Shown here in pieces: positions 56,122-61,207 of a stretch of DNA of 64,000 nucleotides. Origin of the DNA: Escherichia coli (GTDB lineage Bacteria; Pseudomonadota; Gammaproteobacteria; Enterobacterales; Enterobacteriaceae); assembly GCF_003334785.1 (NCBI RefSeq), contig NZ_QOWV01000011.1, one strand, 5' to 3'. The position numbers and the translations under genes were made by a program. The notes beneath the pieces were generated by a model that was given only the letters and a program-made list of their open reading frames with translations, made no database searches and was not told the DNA's origin. Within the stretch, counting starts at the first letter, position 1. Each line of letters begins with the position of its first letter.

Positions 56122-58752
56122 ATGAGCAAGAGCACCGCTGAGATCCGTCAGGCGTTTCTCGACTTTTTCCATAGTAAGGGACATCAGGTAGTTGCCAGCA
56201 GCTCCCTGGTACCCCATAACGACCCAACTTTGTTGTTTACCAACGCCGGGATGAACCAGTTCAAGGATGTGTTCCTTGGGCTCGACAAGCGTAATTATTC
56301 CCGCGCTACCACTTCCCAACGCTGCGTGCGTGCGGGTGGTAAACACAACGACCTGGAAAACGTCGGTTACACCGCGCGTCACCATACCTTCTTCGAAATG
56401 CTGGGCAACTTCAGCTTCGGCGACTATTTCAAACACGATGCCATTCAGTTTGCATGGGAACTGCTGACCAGCGAAAAATGGTTTGCCCTGCCGAAAGAGC
56501 GTCTGTGGGTTACCGTCTATGAAAGCGACGACGAAGCCTACGAAATCTGGGAAAAAGAAGTAGGGATCCCGCGCGAACGTATTATTCGCATCGGCGATAA
56601 CAAAGGTGCGCCATACGCATCTGACAACTTCTGGCAGATGGGTGACACTGGTCCGTGCGGCCCGTGCACCGAAATCTTCTACGATCACGGCGACCACATT
56701 TGGGGGGGCCCTCCGGGAAGCCCGGAAGAAGACGGCGACCGCTACATTGAGATCTGGAACATCGTCTTCATGCAGTTCAACCGCCAGGCCGATGGCACGA
56801 TGGAACCGCTGCCGAAGCCGTCTGTAGATACCGGTATGGGTCTGGAGCGTATTGCTGCGGTGCTGCAACACGTTAACTCTAACTATGACATCGACCTGTT
56901 CCGCACGCTGATCCAGGCGGTAGCGAAAGTCACTGGCGCAACCGATCTGAGCAATAAATCGCTGCGCGTAATCGCTGACCACATTCGTTCTTGTGCGTTC
57001 CTGATCGCGGATGGCGTAATGCCGTCCAATGAAAACCGTGGTTATGTACTGCGTCGTATCATTCGTCGCGCAGTGCGTCACGGTAATATGCTCGGCGCGA
57101 AAGAAACCTTCTTCTACAAACTGGTTGGTCCGCTGATCGACGTTATGGGCTCTGCGGGTGAAGACCTGAAACGCCAGCAGGCGCAGGTTGAGCAGGTGCT
57201 GAAGACTGAAGAAGAGCAGTTTGCTCGTACTCTGGAGCGCGGTCTGGCGTTGCTGGATGAAGAGCTGGCAAAACTTTCTGGTGATACGCTGGATGGTGAA
57301 ACTGCTTTCCGTCTGTACGACACCTATGGCTTCCCGGTTGACCTGACGGCTGATGTTTGTCGTGAGCGCAACATCAAAGTTGACGAAGCTGGTTTTGAAG
57401 CTGCAATGGAAGAGCAGCGTCGTCGCGCGCGCGAAGCCAGCGGCTTTGGTGCCGATTACAACGCAATGATCCGTGTTGACAGTGCATCTGAATTTAAAGG
57501 CTATGACCATCTGGAACTGAACGGCAAAGTGACTGCGCTGTTTGTTGATGGTAAAGCGGTTGATGCCATCAATGCAGGCCAGGAAGCTGTGGTCGTGCTG
57601 GATCAAACGCCATTCTATGCGGAATCCGGCGGTCAGGTTGGCGATAAAGGCGAACTGAAAGGCGCTAACTTCTCCTTTGCGGTGGAAGATACGCAGAAAT
57701 ACGGCCAGGCGATTGGTCACATCGGTAAACTTGCTGCGGGTTCTCTGAAAGTGGGCGACGCGGTGCAGGCTGATGTTGATGAGGCTCGTCGCGCCCGTAT
57801 TCGTCTGAATCACTCCGCAACGCACCTGATGCACGCTGCGCTGCGCCAGGTTCTGGGTACTCATGTATCGCAGAAAGGTTCACTGGTTAACGACAAGGTG
57901 CTGCGCTTCGACTTCTCACACAACGAAGCGATGAAACCAGAAGAGATTCGTGCGGTCGAAGACCTGGTGAACACACAGATTCGTCGCAATTTGCCGATCG
58001 AAACCAACATCATGGATCTCGAAGCGGCGAAAGCGAAAGGTGCGATGGCGCTGTTCGGCGAGAAGTATGATGAGCGCGTACGCGTGCTGAGCATGGGCGA
58101 TTTCTCTACCGAGTTGTGTGGCGGTACTCACGCCAGCCGCACTGGTGATATTGGTCTGTTCCGCATCATCTCTGAATCGGGTACTGCTGCAGGCGTTCGT
58201 CGTATCGAAGCGGTAACCGGAGAAGGTGCTATCGCCACCGTTCATGCAGACAGCGATCGCTTAAGCGAAGTCGCGCATCTGCTGAAAGGCGATAGCAATA
58301 ATCTGGCTGATAAAGTGCGCTCAGTACTGGAACGTACGCGTCAGCTGGAAAAAGAGTTACAACAGCTTAAAGAACAAGCTGCCGCACAGGAGAGCGCAAA
58401 TCTTTCCAGTAAGGCAATTGATGTTAATGGTGTTAAGCTGTTGGTTAGCGAGCTTAGCGGTGTTGAGCCGAAAATGTTGCGTACCATGGTTGACGATTTA
58501 AAAAATCAGCTGGGGTCGACAATTATCGTGCTGGCAACGGTAGTCGAAGGTAAGGTTTCTCTGATTGCAGGCGTATCTAAGGACGTCACAGATCGTGTGA
58601 AAGCAGGGGAACTGATTGGTATGGTCGCTCAGCAGGTGGGCGGCAAGGGTGGTGGACGTCCTGACATGGCGCAAGCCGGTGGTACGGATGCTGCGGCCTT
58701 ACCTGCAGCGTTAGCCAGTGTGAAAGGCTGGGTCAGCGCGAAATTGCAATAA
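56122..58752 (+). CDS. alaS: Alanine--tRNA ligase, 876 aa
   Basis: Class II aaRS beginning [24 protein letters not shown]...; editing-domain HxxxH motif. Confidence 0.97.
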
Positions 58753-58986
58753 TATAAGCGTCAGGCAATGCCGTGGACTCGCTTCACGGCATTCGCATTA
58801 ACGCTATCGACAACGATAAAGTCAGGTTGAAGTTGTGTATATCGGCTAAACTTAGGTTTAACAGAATGTAATGCCATGACTGCTTAGATGTAATGTGTTT
58901 GTCATTGCTTACTTTTTGGCGTTATATGATGGATAATGCCGGGATACAGAGAGACCCGACTCTTTTAATCTTTCAAGGAGCAAAGA

Positions 58987-59172
58987 ATGCTGATTCTGAC
59001 TCGTCGAGTTGGTGAGACCCTCATGATTGGGGATGAGGTCACCGTGACAGTTTTAGGGGTAAAGGGCAACCAGGTACGTATTGGCGTAAATGCCCCGAAG
59101 GAAGTTTCTGTTCACCGTGAAGAGATCTACCAGCGTATCCAGGCTGAAAAATCCCAGCAGTCCAGTTACTAA
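58987..59172 (+). CDS. csrA: Carbon storage regulator CsrA, 61 aa
   Basis: Translation [61 protein letters not shown]. Confidence 0.97.
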
Positions 59173-59397
59173 TCTTTCCGCGTCTCATCTTTATCGGTGA
59201 GACGCACCCTCAAAATTTCTCCTTCACTCTATAGTCTTTTCGCTTTACTCCCGTTCATTCAACTTAAGTCTCCATTTTTTTGCATTACTACTATCTGTCA
59301 GACCTCCATTCTTCTGTTGATAAAACACTCTTTTTGACGTTTTTACAGACTAATTGAACGTGAAGTGTGCAAACGATAAAAGTGTAGGAAAAATTGT

Positions 59398-59425
59398 TTG
59401 ACTTATAAGTCTCAGAAAGTAATAT
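59398..59425 (+). promoter_or_regulatory. Candidate sigma70 promoter of the tRNA operon (-35 TTGACT, 16-bp spacer, -10 TAATAT, GC-rich discriminator)
   Basis: Hexamers read directly about 60 nt upstream of tRNA-Ser; AT-rich UP-like region upstream. Confidence 0.5.
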
Positions 59426-59488
59426 GTGCGCCACGCAGCGACGATGAGCGATAAACAAGTTCTTCGAAGCACTCGTAAGAGGCGTGTG

Positions 59489-59581
59489 GTGAGGTGGCCG
59501 AGAGGCTGAAGGCGCTCCCCTGCTAAGGGAGTATGCGGTCAAAAGCTGCATCCGGGGTTCGAATCCCCGCCTCACCGCCAT
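59489..59581 (+). tRNA. serV: tRNA-Ser (anticodon GCU), 93 nt with CCA end
   Basis: GGTGAGGTGGCCGAGAGG...GGTTCGAATCCCCGCCTCACCGCCA; long variable arm; anticodon loop CTGCTAA. Confidence 0.95.
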
Positions 59582-59584
59582 TTG

Positions 59585-59661
59585 CATCCGTAGCTCAGCT
59601 GGATAGAGTACTCGGCTACGAACCGAGCGGTCGGAGGTTCGAATCCTCCCGGATGCACCAT
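59585..59661 (+). tRNA. argV: tRNA-Arg (anticodon ACG), 77 nt with CCA end
   Basis: GCATCCGTAGCTCAGCTGGATAGAGTACTCGGCTACGAACCGAGCGGTCGGAGGTTCGAATCCTCCCGGATGCACCA; gene symbol is positional. Confidence 0.95.
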
Positions 59662-59777
59662 ATTCTCCGAAATCTTCAGCAATGAAGGTATCGAAGAGGT
59701 AGCGGAATTAACCGCAGGCACTAGGGATGATAACGTTGCTTTAGCAACGGCCCGAAGGGCGAGCCGCAAGGCGAGTA

Positions 59778-59796
59778 ATCCTCCCGGATGCACCAT
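59778..59796 (+). repeat. Truncated pseudo-copy of the tRNA-Arg 3' end (AATCCTCCCGGATGCACCA) inside the inter-tRNA spacer
   Basis: 19-nt exact match to the tRNA-Arg 3' end, preceded by a CGTTGC-TTTA-GCAACG hairpin. Confidence 0.8.
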
Positions 59797-59859
59797 CTCT
59801 TAATTGATATGGCTTTAGTAGCGGTATCAATATCAGCAGTAGAATAAGTTTTCCCGATG

Positions 59860-59936
59860 CATCCGTAGCTCAGCTGGATAGAGTACTCGGCTACGAACCG
59901 AGCGGTCGGAGGTTCGAATCCTCCCGGATGCACCAT
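59860..59936 (+). tRNA. tRNA-Arg (anticodon ACG), second identical copy
   Basis: Identical 77-nt sequence, 275 bp after the first copy. Confidence 0.95.
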
Positions 59937-60051
59937 ATTCTCCGTAACCTTCAGCAATGAAGGTATCGAAGAGATAGCGGTATTAACCGCAGGCACCAGG
60001 AAGGATAACGTTGCGCCAGCAACGGCCCGAAGGGCGAACGTCAGTGAGTCA

Positions 60052-60069
60052 TCCTCCCGGATGCACCAT
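60052..60069 (+). repeat. Second truncated pseudo-copy of the tRNA-Arg 3' end (ATCCTCCCGGATGCACCA)
   Basis: 18-nt exact match, 274 bp after the first pseudo-copy, again preceded by a GTTGCGCCAGCAAC hairpin. Confidence 0.8.
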
Positions 60070-60215
60070 CTTCTCCAAAAAATTTCCTTCAAAAATATCT
60101 CATTTCTAAATAAGTCCTTTATCCATTTCCTGAATTTTCTTCTCCTTCGCCATCAGCGACAAAATCAAGCAATTACGCTAAAGTAGCGTCATATTTTTCG
60201 ACTTGCGAGAAGACC

Positions 60216-60782
60216 ATGTACGAGCGTTATGCAGGTTTAATTTTTGATATGGATGGCACAATCCTGGATACGGAGCCTACGCACCGTAAAGCGTGGCGCG
60301 AAGTATTAGGGCACTACGGTCTTCAGTACGATATTCAGGCGATGATTGCGCTTAATGGATCGCCCACCTGGCGTATTGCTCAGGCAATTATTGAGCTGAA
60401 TCAGGCCGATCTCGACCCGCATGCGTTAGCGCGTGAAAAAACAGAAGCAGTAAGAAGTATGCTGCTGGATAGCGTCGAACCGCTTCCTCTTGTTGATGTG
60501 GTGAAAAGTTGGCATGGTCGTCGCCCAATGGCTGTAGGAACGGGGAGTGAAAGCGCCATCGCTGAGGCATTGCTGGCGCACCTGGGATTACGCCATTATT
60601 TTGACGCCGTCGTCGCTGCCGATCACGTCAAACACCATAAACCCGCGCCAGACACATTTTTGTTGTGCGCGCAGCGTATGGGCGTGCAACCGACGCAGTG
60701 TGTGGTCTTTGAAGATGCCGATTTCGGTATTCAGGCGGCCCGTGCAGCAGGCATGGACGCCGTGGATGTTCGCTTGCTGTGA
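60216..60782 (+). CDS. yqaB: HAD-superfamily sugar phosphatase, 188 aa
   Basis: HAD motif I FDMDGTILDTE. Confidence 0.92.
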   Translation: MYERYAGLIFDMDGTILDTEPTHRKAWREVLGHYGLQYDIQAMIALNGSPTWRIAQAIIELNQADLDPHALAREKTEAVRSMLLDSVEPLPLVDVVKSWHGRRPMAVGTGSESAIAEALLAHLGLRHYFDAVVAADHVKHHKPAPDTFLLCAQRMGVQPTQCVVFEDADFGIQAARAAGMDAVDVRLL

Positions 60783-61207
60783 GTGAAGCGTTATCGCTTT
60801 TCTCGTTGTTTGCCAGTAGTTTTCTCAGCGCTACACTATTACCCGGCAACTCCGAAGTCGTGCTGGTGGCAATGTTGCTTTCCGGGATCAGTCATCCCTG
60901 GGTTTTAGTTTTAACAGCAACAATGGGTAATAGCCTTGGAGGGTTAACTAACGTTATCCTTGGGCGTTTCTTTCCATTGCGTAAAACATCGCGCTGGCAA
61001 GAGAAAGCTACCGGCTGGCTGAAACGCTATGGTGCAGTCACGCTATTATTAAGCTGGATGCCCGTGGTTGGCGATTTACTGTGTCTGTTAGCGGGATGGA
61101 TGCGCATCTCGTGGGGACCGGTAATCTTTTTTTTGTGCCTTGGTAAAGCGTTACGCTATGTTGCAGTTGCAGCAGCGACCGTTCAGGGCATGATGTGGTG
61201 GCACTAA
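60779..61207 (+). CDS. yqaA: DedA/SNARE-associated-family inner-membrane protein, 142 aa, GTG start
   Basis: Hydrophobic polytopic ORF; 4-nt overlap with yqaB. Confidence 0.88.
   Translation: MSEALSLFSLFASSFLSATLLPGNSEVVLVAMLLSGISHPWVLVLTATMGNSLGGLTNVILGRFFPLRKTSRWQEKATGWLKRYGAVTLLLSWMPVVGDLLCLLAGWMRISWGPVIFFLCLGKALRYVAVAAATVQGMMWWH

Follow-up and report, generated by a model that had tools for sequence, protein, structure and literature searches.

tRNA-linked repeats and a two-gene tRNA-Arg(ACG) array in the serV-argVYZQ operon of Escherichia coli

The DNA analyzed here, which we call the window, is one 64,000-nucleotide stretch of an Escherichia coli genome. Near its end, csrA is followed by a tRNA-Ser(GCU) gene, an array of tRNA-Arg(ACG) genes, and yqaB, and this region is the known E. 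coli serV-argVYZQ stable-RNA operon, between csrA and yqaB, in a form with two Arg genes. The features of the locus, all on the + strand, are as follows.

59398..59425, + strand: promoter-like site, TTGACT, 16-nt spacer, TAATAT (consensus scan, 9/12 matches)
59488..59580, + strand: serV, tRNA-Ser(GCU) (ARAGORN; Rfam tRNA 56.8 bits)
59584..59660, + strand: tRNA-Arg(ACG) copy 1, at the argV position (ARAGORN; Rfam tRNA 67.1 bits; spacer identities)
59661..59795, + strand: tRNA-linked repeat 1, equivalent to K-12 raZ (RF00391 31.0 bits, E 0.002)
59796..59858, + strand: 63-nt spacer, TCTCTTAATTGAT...CCCGAT, from repeat 1 to the next Arg gene
59859..59935, + strand: tRNA-Arg(ACG) copy 2, equivalent to argQ (ARAGORN; trailer identity)
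59936..60068, + strand: tRNA-linked repeat 2, equivalent to K-12 raQ (RF00391 22.8 bits, E 0.21)
60175..60198, + strand: terminator-like hairpin ACGCTAAAGTAGCGT, then a T-run (consensus scan)

ARAGORN recovered both the Ser/Arg tRNA operon of the original prediction and its two identical tRNA-Arg(ACG) genes 275 nt apart, but the operon's start moves from 59489 to 59488, where serV begins, and the tandem units it described amount to only ∼1.65 copies. MG1655 carries an annotated serV at the corresponding position. Both Arg genes have one and the same 77-nt sequence, and each falls within one arm of a 180-nt direct repeat (59583–59762 and 59858–60037; 94% identity, spacing 275) found by repeat search. 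Tandem Repeats Finder reported no repeat over 58500–61000, because the array contains so few repeat units. After the TAATAT of the promoter-like site lies a G+C-rich stretch (GTGCGCCACGCAGCG), and the position of this site 62 nt upstream of serV suggests a promoter role for the serV-arg operon. The hairpin at 60175–60198, 106 nt past the last of the tRNA-end copies described below and directly ahead of yqaB, is a putative terminator, which would therefore place repeat 2 within the transcription unit.

Downstream of each Arg gene lies a copy of its own 3′ end. On the + strand, the 18-mer ATCCTCCCGGATGCACCA has four occurrences (59643, 59778, 59918, and 60051), and the rest of the 64 kb contains no other; genuine tRNA ends account for two of them and pseudo-ends for the remaining two. 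The first pseudo-end (59777–59795) is an exact 19-nt copy starting 116 nt past the real CCA, and the second (60051–60068) is an exact 18-nt copy starting 115 nt past it, in agreement with the exact 18–19-nt copies after hairpins that had been predicted. Each element is ∼135 nt long, and the copied segment spans the T-loop through the CCA of the upstream tRNA. Ahead of each pseudo-end are the hairpins CGTTGC-N4-GCAACG and GCCC-GAA-GGGC and one short variable hairpin, and a conserved 19-mer core, GCAACGGCCCGAAGGGCGA, matches exactly twice in the window, once per element, versus 0.10 matches expected in shuffles. Both elements begin at the base following a tRNA-Arg CCA and lie on the + strand between the promoter-like and terminator-like sites. 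Repeat 1 consists of a 5′ hairpin domain and then a closing helix enclosing hairpins at 59734–59749, 59750–59760, and 59763–59772; repeat 2 has the exact core 19-mer at 60019–60037.

Neither ARAGORN nor the Rfam tRNA model (E≤1) gave a match over 59661–59795 or 59936–60068, and by longest common substring the tRNA sequence in the elements is limited to their last 18–19 nt, ruling them out as tRNA genes or pseudogenes. A coding role, considered because the tyrT repeats contain tpr, was likewise rejected, as the ORFs there are all mechanical and overlap the tRNA genes. Below-threshold Rfam matches to the plastid families ‘ycf2’ and ‘psbI-rps4’ are artefacts on the antisense strands of the tRNA genes.

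Both elements are instead tRNA-linked repeats (TLRs), an already known family, so that the finding is real but ordinary: the window adds one more TLR copy and nothing else new on TLRs. TLRs have been described since 1978 (Egan & Landy 1978; Rudd 1999), with the 3′-end copy as their defining mark (PMC8144298), the one source in which our literature search found the family described. The elements lie within a stable-RNA operon, carry an 18–19-nt copy of the upstream 3′ end, share the common core, and have catalogued counterparts in K-12, where 22 TLRs are known and raV, raZ, and raQ are listed at the serV-argVYZQ locus (strain table, PMC8144298). These three share with the window elements their locus, their position after Arg genes, and the 18–19-nt copy, and the window elements are identical to the K-12 raZ and raQ units except at a single base downstream of the repeat. 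K-12 has three TLRs at the locus, whereas the window has two: along with the argV and argY units it lacks raV.

Within Rfam, the closest family is RtT RNA (RF00391), and on sequence similarity we assign the window TLRs as divergent, short-form, distant relatives of it. Both elements (31.0 and 22.8 bits) align over the full length of the model yet score below its gathering threshold of 45 bits; in K-12, the arg TLRs likewise score ∼23–31 bits, compared to 133–137 bits for the tyrT TLRs, and long-form TLRs of other tRNA genes score 52–95 bits. RtT/rttR (tyrT-tyrV) and the arg elements share the core AACGTTGC-N4-GCAACGRCCCGAAGGGYGA, followed by a short hairpin and GAGTMATCC, and each lies within a tRNA operon and ends in the cognate tRNA 3′ end. 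The arg elements differ in being a short form that lacks the TTCGA...AGCGAGA segment and in ending in an Arg-type rather than a Tyr-type sequence. RrA, RrB, and RrF, located between terminators T1 and T2 of rrnA, rrnB, and rrnD, contain the same core and then a copy of the upstream stable-RNA 3′ end, but the genes upstream of them encode 5S rRNA instead of tRNA; these TLRs are co-transcribed and processed, with ends mapped beside the repeat. In addition, they contain GGA motifs and have been found to bind both Hfq and CsrA in vitro, whereas tRNA-type TLRs are predicted CsrA non-binders (PMC8144298). A further tRNA-operon spacer RNA, 3′ETS-leuZ, is freed from its tRNA primary transcript by RNase E (cited in PMC8144298); unlike the arg TLRs, it has an unrelated sequence, no tRNA 3′-end copy, and demonstrated base-pairing, sponging RyhB and RybB.

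To place the two elements in a wider frame, we sampled 120 loci from many genera. The TLR core lies downstream of tRNA genes for Tyr, Lys, Pro, Glu, and Arg as well as of 5S rRNA genes, and an exact 18-nt copy of the upstream tRNA 3′ end closes 89 of the 116 cores that have an upstream tRNA. Where the neighboring tRNA is a minority variant, the TLR carries the same variant in 15 of 16 cases. The window elements are predicted to fold stably (repeat 1, MFE −50 kcal/mol, z = −4.3; repeat 2, −49.9 kcal/mol, z = −4.8), and the RNAalifold consensus of 17 Arg-type copies has 30 pairs (95.9% paired, versus 30–52% in slid controls), comprising a 13-pair closing helix around three hairpins, with the ACCA tail left free. 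This closing helix, which corresponds to the outer helix of RF00391, pairs the pseudo-3′ end with a complementary 5′ strand, and for Arg, Tyr, Glu, and Lys no other duplex in the row was as stable as that between the 5′ flank and the cognate 3′ end. Compensatory changes were found at 8 pairs, versus 3.3±1.1 in shuffles, and none of 500 shuffles reached 8. Selection on the TLR RNA need not explain all of this covariation, part of which could stem from tRNA ancestry and from gene conversion with the neighboring gene.

The array itself is shorter than in the reference strain. MG1655 (K-12) has four Arg genes at spacings of 275/139/275, as the original prediction had stated, and BL21 also has four; the window has two, at a spacing of 275, in an array of 486 bp. 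The K-12 argY unit (139 bp) is the 275-bp unit minus its TLR, with the same kind of spacer directly after argY and no repeat between. Sequences specific to the missing part are TATTCTACGTACTTTCAGCGATGAAGG for unit 1 of the four-gene array and ACCATCTCTTACTTGATATGG for the argY junction. The closest complete relatives, natural phylogroup-A-like isolates with 100% identity over 24 kb upstream in the window, have four Arg genes, and the window's contraction is therefore derived. Compared to the nearest four-gene relative, the first spacer matches the argZ unit at 198/198 positions and the trailer matches the argQ unit at 140/140; the spacers are also identical to the argZ and argQ units of MG1655 and LAU-OXA. 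The predicted contraction thus takes an exact form: the missing 414 bp are precisely the argV and argY units, and the spacers retained are those of argZ and argQ. Copy 1, at the argV position yet with the argZ spacer behind it, would on this evidence be the product of an argV × argZ crossover.

Aligning other E. coli genomes, as had been proposed, gave a count of 2–5 Arg genes and 1–4 TLRs in the parsed arrays, the two numbers varying independently. Among 5,426 complete E. coli genomes, at least 28 have two Arg genes (28 among the 60 best-matching), and these come from unrelated lineages, O104:H4 2011C-3493 included. In a spread sample of 59 genomes, array lengths ranged from 492 to 1036 bp, and ∼54 of the 59 fell in the four-gene length class. 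G1/2 has a chimeric first spacer, EC416 has lost unit 1 alone, and many strains have Arg genes without a TLR between them. The terminal TLR persists in 14 of 16 parsed arrays.

Our best explanation, to which we give a probability of roughly 0.85 as a whole, is a two-gene serV-arg operon with a TLR after each Arg gene, four-to-two recombination, and tRNA-like processing. The four-to-two change would be a clean 414-bp deletion by homologous recombination, unequal or intramolecular, between the identical 77-bp argV and argZ. Arrays of tRNA genes and TLRs would be natural substrates for unequal crossover, which may account for the 2–5 Arg genes and 1–4 TLRs seen among strains. The TLRs would be co-transcribed with the tRNAs and probably released by the same RNase E and exonuclease 3′-end processing as the tRNA, because they copy its 3′ end and helix. 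Release of a discrete RNA from the operon has been shown for rtT and RrA/B/F, the ends of RrB map 3 nt past the 5S end and 3 nt past the repeat, and the copied 3′ end of rrn TLRs has been proposed to direct RNase E cleavage (PMC8144298). By analogy, transcription and processing at the raZ and raQ pseudo-ends would be expected, and the earlier suggestion that they are decoy processing sites resembles the RNase E proposal for rrn TLRs (PMC8144298).

The alternative that survives best is assembly collapse, in which the source strain has four Arg genes and the assembler followed a path serV - tRNA - unit 3 - tRNA - unit 4, dropping units 1 and 2. Such an array contains four exact copies of the 77-nt gene and the skipping path is a valid walk through the repeat graph, the nearest complete relatives have four genes, and the window's exact sequence is absent from the 5,426 complete genomes (best match 99.9%). 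Draft assemblies, moreover, often leave TLR arrays as tiny TLR-only contigs of 244–335 bp (loci L021, L028, L090, L097, and L098 in our sample). Against collapse, the complete genome of MC1061 contains the same two-gene product, differing from the window at two bases; two-gene arrays recur in the unrelated lineages noted above; the junction is a clean one, free of mixed bases; and the 64 kb of the window run through the array without a break. We consider collapse a serious but somewhat unlikely reading, and prefer a true contraction by recombination.

As to where the pseudo-ends come from, TLRs might derive from a small sequence, mobile or inserted, that entered a duplicated tRNA gene at its T-loop, or be integration-site (att) scars, with the 3′-end copy as the displaced target. 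A Yersinia nurmii TLR reads as tRNA-Arg 22–59, a 63-nt insert, and then 60–77, and long-form TLRs keep the cognate T-stem 5′ strand and TTCGA 28–32 nt ahead of the core (45/47 for Tyr, 8/8 for Pro). The copied segment starts in the T-loop, which is also the crossover site of one class of tRNA-targeting integrases. The repeats carry neither integrase nor cargo, however, with about 116 nt between repeats and the overlapping mechanical ORFs alone; TLRs also stand in tandem without a tRNA between them (three after tyrV) and after 5S rRNA genes, and both the compensatory changes and the concerted evolution of TLRs point to ongoing constraint. Because of the missing cargo, the tandem occurrence, and the 5S rRNA linkage, we rate an integration scar as unlikely. 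The origin of TLRs and any present function they have are not mutually exclusive.

With similarly low confidence, we put forward a joint proposal: that TLRs, the window's two included, are no inert spacers but partial copies of the cognate tRNA with a conserved ∼60-nt, three-hairpin insert in the T-loop, acting as processing mimics. Gene conversion may hold the 3′ strand identical to the neighboring tRNA, while the complementary 5′ strand may restore a helix like that of the acceptor and T-arm with a free NCCA tail; the RNA could then be a competing or sensing substrate for tRNA 3′-end processing, CCA repair, or RNase P. If so, the model would cover six or more tRNA families as well as 5S rRNA, across several gammaproteobacterial orders. 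We found no statement of this T-loop-insert anatomy in the literature searched, outside of which Rudd 1999 falls.

Less probable still is that the arg TLRs are trans-acting sRNAs, such as protein or sRNA sponges like RrA/B/F or 3′ETS-leuZ. Their conserved structure with compensatory changes fits this idea, as do the in vitro binding of RrA/B/F to Hfq and CsrA and the 3′ETS-leuZ precedent (PMC8144298), and csrA adjoins the operon. The 19 TLRs of tRNA operons, however, scored below 0.01 for predicted CsrA binding (PMC8144298), and we dismissed a CsrA link drawn from the neighboring csrA as coincidence, because tRNA-type TLRs are predicted non-binders (PMC8144298). The locus holds anything from one to four TLRs across natural strains, and there is no known target or phenotype, an earlier rtT phenotype having been retracted (PMC8144298). 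A strain without all 22 TLRs has been built (PMC8144298); together with the TLR-less gene spacings of many strains, this means that any function is dispensable in the laboratory.

The original prediction's suggestion that the pseudo-3′ ends are scars of unequal recombination truncating tRNA genes is highly improbable: although a crossover that joins a true to a pseudo 3′ end would account for TLR-less units such as K-12 argY, and TLR number does differ among strains, pseudo-ends are present with 2, 3, 4, or 5 genes (four-gene K-12 has three), occur in other genera beside other tRNA and 5S rRNA genes, always close a structured element whose core is common to the Tyr, Lys, Pro, Glu, and 5S TLRs, track species-specific tRNA variants, and belong to a family catalogued since 1978/1999. 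The pseudo-ends are built-in parts of this known repeat family, doubling as recombination substrates, and not contraction scars.

TLRs are an old puzzle, known since 1978, conserved, and structured. In practical terms, the finding is of modest value. The locus is a natural copy-number hotspot, with 2–5 genes and 1–4 repeats in complete genomes; it is also an assembly trap, and gene counts taken there from draft genomes are therefore untrustworthy. tRNA-Arg(ACG) reads the main arginine codons, and its gene number affects tRNA supply. Deletion of argYZQ, three of the four genes, lowered tRNA-Arg2 16-fold and slowed growth in LB (PMC13170351). A two-gene strain, if real, could show a measurable translation phenotype.

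Three tRNA genes were identified in the whole window by ARAGORN, a tRNA-Ser(GCU) and two tRNA-Arg(ACG), at a locus with the gene order csrA, serV, Arg array, yqaB. The two tRNA-Arg genes are identical 77-mers whose starts lie 275 nt apart. A repeat search of the window returned a direct repeat of 180 nt (94% identity, spacing 275) and four copies of ATCCTCCCGGATGCACCA, at 59643, 59778, 59918, and 60051, two of which are true tRNA 3′ ends while the other two are "pseudo-ends," copies of the tRNA 3′ end including CCA, each with hairpins upstream. The original prediction of two tRNA-Arg(ACG) genes at 275-bp spacing, with hairpins and pseudo-3′ ends, was thus correct, and it had placed the operon at the right locus, with only the start of serV (59488) off by 1 nt. 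A promoter-like site and a terminator-like hairpin place both pseudo-end elements within the presumed transcription unit.

Features of the serV-arg locus in the window
58988–59173: csrA, directly upstream of the operon
59398–59425: promoter-like site TTGACT-16-TAATAT
59488–59580: tRNA-Ser(GCU), serV
59584–59660: first tRNA-Arg(ACG)
59661–59795: raZ, first tRNA-linked repeat (TLR)
59777–59795: pseudo-end 1, 19 nt exact, starting 116 nt past the real CCA
59859–59935: second tRNA-Arg(ACG)
59936–60068: raQ, second TLR
60051–60068: pseudo-end 2, 18 nt exact, starting 115 nt past the real CCA
60175–60198: terminator-like hairpin and T-run

Both spacers align over the full length of RF00391, the Rfam model of RtT RNA from the tyrT locus, scoring 31.0 and 22.8 bits, both short of the gathering score (45). 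On the same model, the four RtT copies of the K-12 tyrT locus score 133–137 bits and the three K-12 arg elements 23–31 bits; the arg elements and RtT RNA share a core, AACGTTGC-N4-GCAACGGCCCGAAGGG, that is obvious by eye. Stenum et al. 2021 call such elements tRNA-linked repeats and describe them as so far without known function, an early claim for rtT RNA having been retracted (PMC8144298). As recounted there, TLRs were first seen in 1978 by Egan and Landy, and the 1999 catalogue of Rudd holds 22 copies at ten K-12 loci. The strain table of that paper includes, for a strain lacking all 22 TLRs, the deletion "Δ(argY/Z/Q, raQ/Z/V)," so the arg-locus elements had already been named raV, raZ, and raQ. 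The window elements, raZ and raQ, belong to an established, named family, and their locus is likewise known. In addition, csrA adjoins this TLR-bearing operon, and CsrA, like Hfq, is an in vitro binding partner of the three rrn-linked TLRs (RrA, RrB, and RrF); because tRNA-type TLRs are predicted CsrA non-binders (PMC8144298), the adjacency is probably a coincidence.

MG1655 carries four Arg genes (argV, argY, argZ, and argQ), as the original prediction had stated for K-12, and BL21 has the same layout, with spacings of 275, 139, and 275 nt; the K-12 argY unit is the 275-bp unit minus its TLR. The first spacer of the window is identical to the K-12 argZ spacer and its trailer matches that of argQ, with one substitution further downstream, while both are identical to those of the four-gene relative LAU-OXA (198/198 and 140/140). 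Hence, exactly the argV and argY units are absent, 275+139 = 414 bp, as would be expected if argV and argZ, which are identical, had crossed over. Over 24 kb upstream, several complete genomes match the window at 100% identity; both of those inspected at the locus, LAU-OXA and NCTC9041, are of the four-gene type, so the two-gene state is derived. The predicted contraction is therefore supported by the 414-bp loss and by the four-gene relatives, subject to a caveat about assembly.

It is unlikely, though by no means negligibly so, that the two-gene array is an assembly collapse. In favour of a collapse, the nearest relatives carry four genes, an assembler could validly traverse the repeat graph along the path that skips the two units, and no genome in the complete set has the exact window sequence. 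Moreover, five draft contigs consist purely of these repeats (L021, 246 bp; L028, 272 bp; L090, 244 bp; L097, 335 bp; L098, 315 bp); short-read assemblers evidently often leave TLR arrays unresolved, and drafts are thus no reliable basis for counting tRNA genes at these loci. Against a collapse, the junction is clean and complete genomes show the same layout. MC1061 has the same two-gene product with two bases different. At window position 59869 (position 11 of the second tRNA-Arg, in the D-stem), the window and K-12 have C and MC1061 (L002, NZ_CP195014.1) has T, which would give a U-G pair and reflects either a sequencing error or a genuine mutation in one of just two Arg gene copies. Judging from the MC1061, G1/2, and EC416 arrays, two-gene arrays have arisen more than once: the first spacer of G1/2 is chimeric (189/198 to unit 1, argV with its spacer, and 188/198 to unit 3, that of argZ), pointing to a crossover inside the repeat, and EC416 has lost only unit 1.

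Array length, taken as the span of the match to a flank-only query, varied among 59 genomes drawn as a spread sample from the 5,426 complete ones of E. coli: ∼900 bp in 27, 630–633 bp in nine, 765–772 bp in eight, ∼1035 bp in six, 670–672 bp in four, 733–734 bp in two, and 608, 873, and 492 bp in one each. The window's 486 bp occurred in none of the 59. Mapping these length classes to parsed examples suggests about 54 genomes with four genes, four with five, one with three, and none with two. Counting Arg copies in other E. coli genomes, a check proposed with the original prediction, gave 2–5 genes and 1–4 pseudo-end elements among 16 parsed arrays, the two numbers varying independently. With T for a tRNA gene, R for a pseudo-end element, and S for a 62-nt spacer, MG1655 and BL21 read T-R-S-T-S-T-R-S-T-R; the window, MC1061, and O104:H4 read T-R-S-T-R; ECCNB12-2 reads T-S-T-S-T-S-T-R; 23CRST051 has four genes with R after every one; and UPEC_U013 has five genes and one R. 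Since pseudo-ends are present whatever the gene number, which the original prediction had itself named as refuting evidence, the proposal that they are relics of the contraction is rejected. Among the best 60 of 100 genomes collinear with the window, 28 have two Arg genes and 32 three. The terminal TLR is kept in 14 of the 16 parsed arrays, a hint, speculative as yet, of a role in the 3′ trailer. In 23CRST032 (L130) and M2021-10044802/2-E (L133), the last Arg gene follows a 178–179-nt unit and lacks a terminal TLR.

The window TLRs have folding energies of −50.0 and −49.9 kcal/mol (z −4.3 and −4.8 versus shuffled controls). In an alignment (A1) of 17 Arg-type copies spanning some dozen genera, RNAalifold predicted that a 5′ strand with the consensus GCACCAGGGAGGAT pairs with the pseudo-3′ end ATCCTCCCGGATGC in a closing helix of 13 pairs around three hairpins, with another hairpin upstream and a free ACCA tail. 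In these copies, 95.9% of cells are paired, versus only 30–52% when partners are slid by 1–3 columns, and both-side changes occur in 8 pairs versus 3.3±1.1 in shuffles (0/500 reach 8). The own-type 3′ end is the best partner of the 5′ flank for Arg (−17.8 kcal/mol; next best −14.2), Tyr (−18.2; −14.5), Glu (−16.3; −12.7), and Lys (−12.6; −11.6), while for Pro and 5S the cognate duplex was not distinct from other types. This pairing supports a maintained TLR helix but is no proof of selection on RNA, because the copies share ancestry and their 5′ strand may be tRNA sequence retained by descent.

Scanning one genome per species with the core GCAACGRCCCGAAGGGYGA gave at least 120 loci. Among the matches listed, the core follows genes for tRNA-Tyr(GUA), Lys(UUU), Arg(ACG), Pro(UGG and CGG), Glu(UUC), Arg(CCG), and 5S rRNA, in many Enterobacterales and in Gilliamella, Zophobihabitans, Aestuariibacter, Marinobacterium, and Amphritea. 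In the same matches, 89 of 116 cores with a same-strand tRNA upstream end in an exact 18-nt copy of its 3′ end, and beside a minority-variant tRNA the TLR has the same variant in 15 of 16 cases: the repeats evolve in concert with the gene next to them. The long forms are already covered by RF00391, on which TLRs score 91–95 bits (Pro), 77–81 (Klebsiella Lys), 71 (Yersinia Arg), 44–52 (Glu), 37–38 (short-form Enterobacter Arg), and 28 (E. coli 5S), compared with 23–31 for the E. coli Arg short form.

Outside Enterobacterales, other Gammaproteobacteria have TLR cores with cognate pseudo-3′ ends, also next to tRNA families other than those observed in E. coli: tRNA-Glu in Aestuariibacter (L108, three in tandem), tRNA-Pro in Gilliamella (L018, L019, L075, L076), tRNA-Arg CCG in Marinobacterium and Amphritea (L020, L042), and tRNA-Lys in Zophobihabitans (L031). 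At rrn-operon ends the core leads into the 5S rRNA 3′ end, AACTGCCAGGCAT (L009, L043, L045, L046, L049 in E. coli, L055, L056, L077, L078, L085, L086, L110); these are the rrA/rrB/rrF small RNAs, and many cloning vectors contain the rrnB TLR, which sits between terminators T1 and T2 (PMC8144298). Some Tyr-type cores have a decayed pseudo-end (AATCCTT, then unrelated sequence) and no tRNA gene directly upstream (L005, − strand, ∼9367; L014, ∼1585; L037, ∼4645; L058; L120, ∼1142), and are apparently degenerate or displaced copies near tyrT loci.

A Yersinia nurmii TLR (L079:2034–2195, − strand) consists of tRNA-Arg positions 22–59 (34/37 identical, with a 23-nt exact run), a 63-nt insert, and positions 60–77 (exact). 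In long-form TLRs (survey loci L005–L124), the cognate T-stem 5′ strand and TTCGA lie a constant 28–32 nt before the core (Tyr 45/47, Pro 8/8, Arg(CCG) 2/2, Lys 12/37). From this anatomy and spacing, the core seems to be an insert within the T-loop of an incomplete copy of the cognate tRNA; in the short form, to which the E. coli Arg elements belong, the T-stem-like strand runs straight into the first hairpin. A reading of TLRs as tRNA mimics interrupted in the T-loop, with an RNA role under selection, strikes us as quite improbable.

Beyond the architecture, homology, deletion product, conserved fold, and concerted evolution shown here, the mechanism we propose would act at two levels. In DNA, unequal homologous recombination on identical genes, ∼90%-identical TLRs, and 18–19-nt end repeats would alter gene and TLR numbers. 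In RNA, TLRs would be co-transcribed with the tRNAs. RNase E cuts tRNA precursors just downstream of CCA, and since the TLR carries a tRNA 3′ end copy in a helical context, the 3′ processing that RNase E initiates may release it as well. For RrB, the ends were mapped 3 nt past the 5S end and 3 nt past the repeat (PMC8144298). Whatever the function of TLRs, it is dispensable in the laboratory. The number of Arg genes itself matters: deletion of argYZQ lowers tRNA-Arg2 16-fold and causes a growth defect in LB (PMC13170351).
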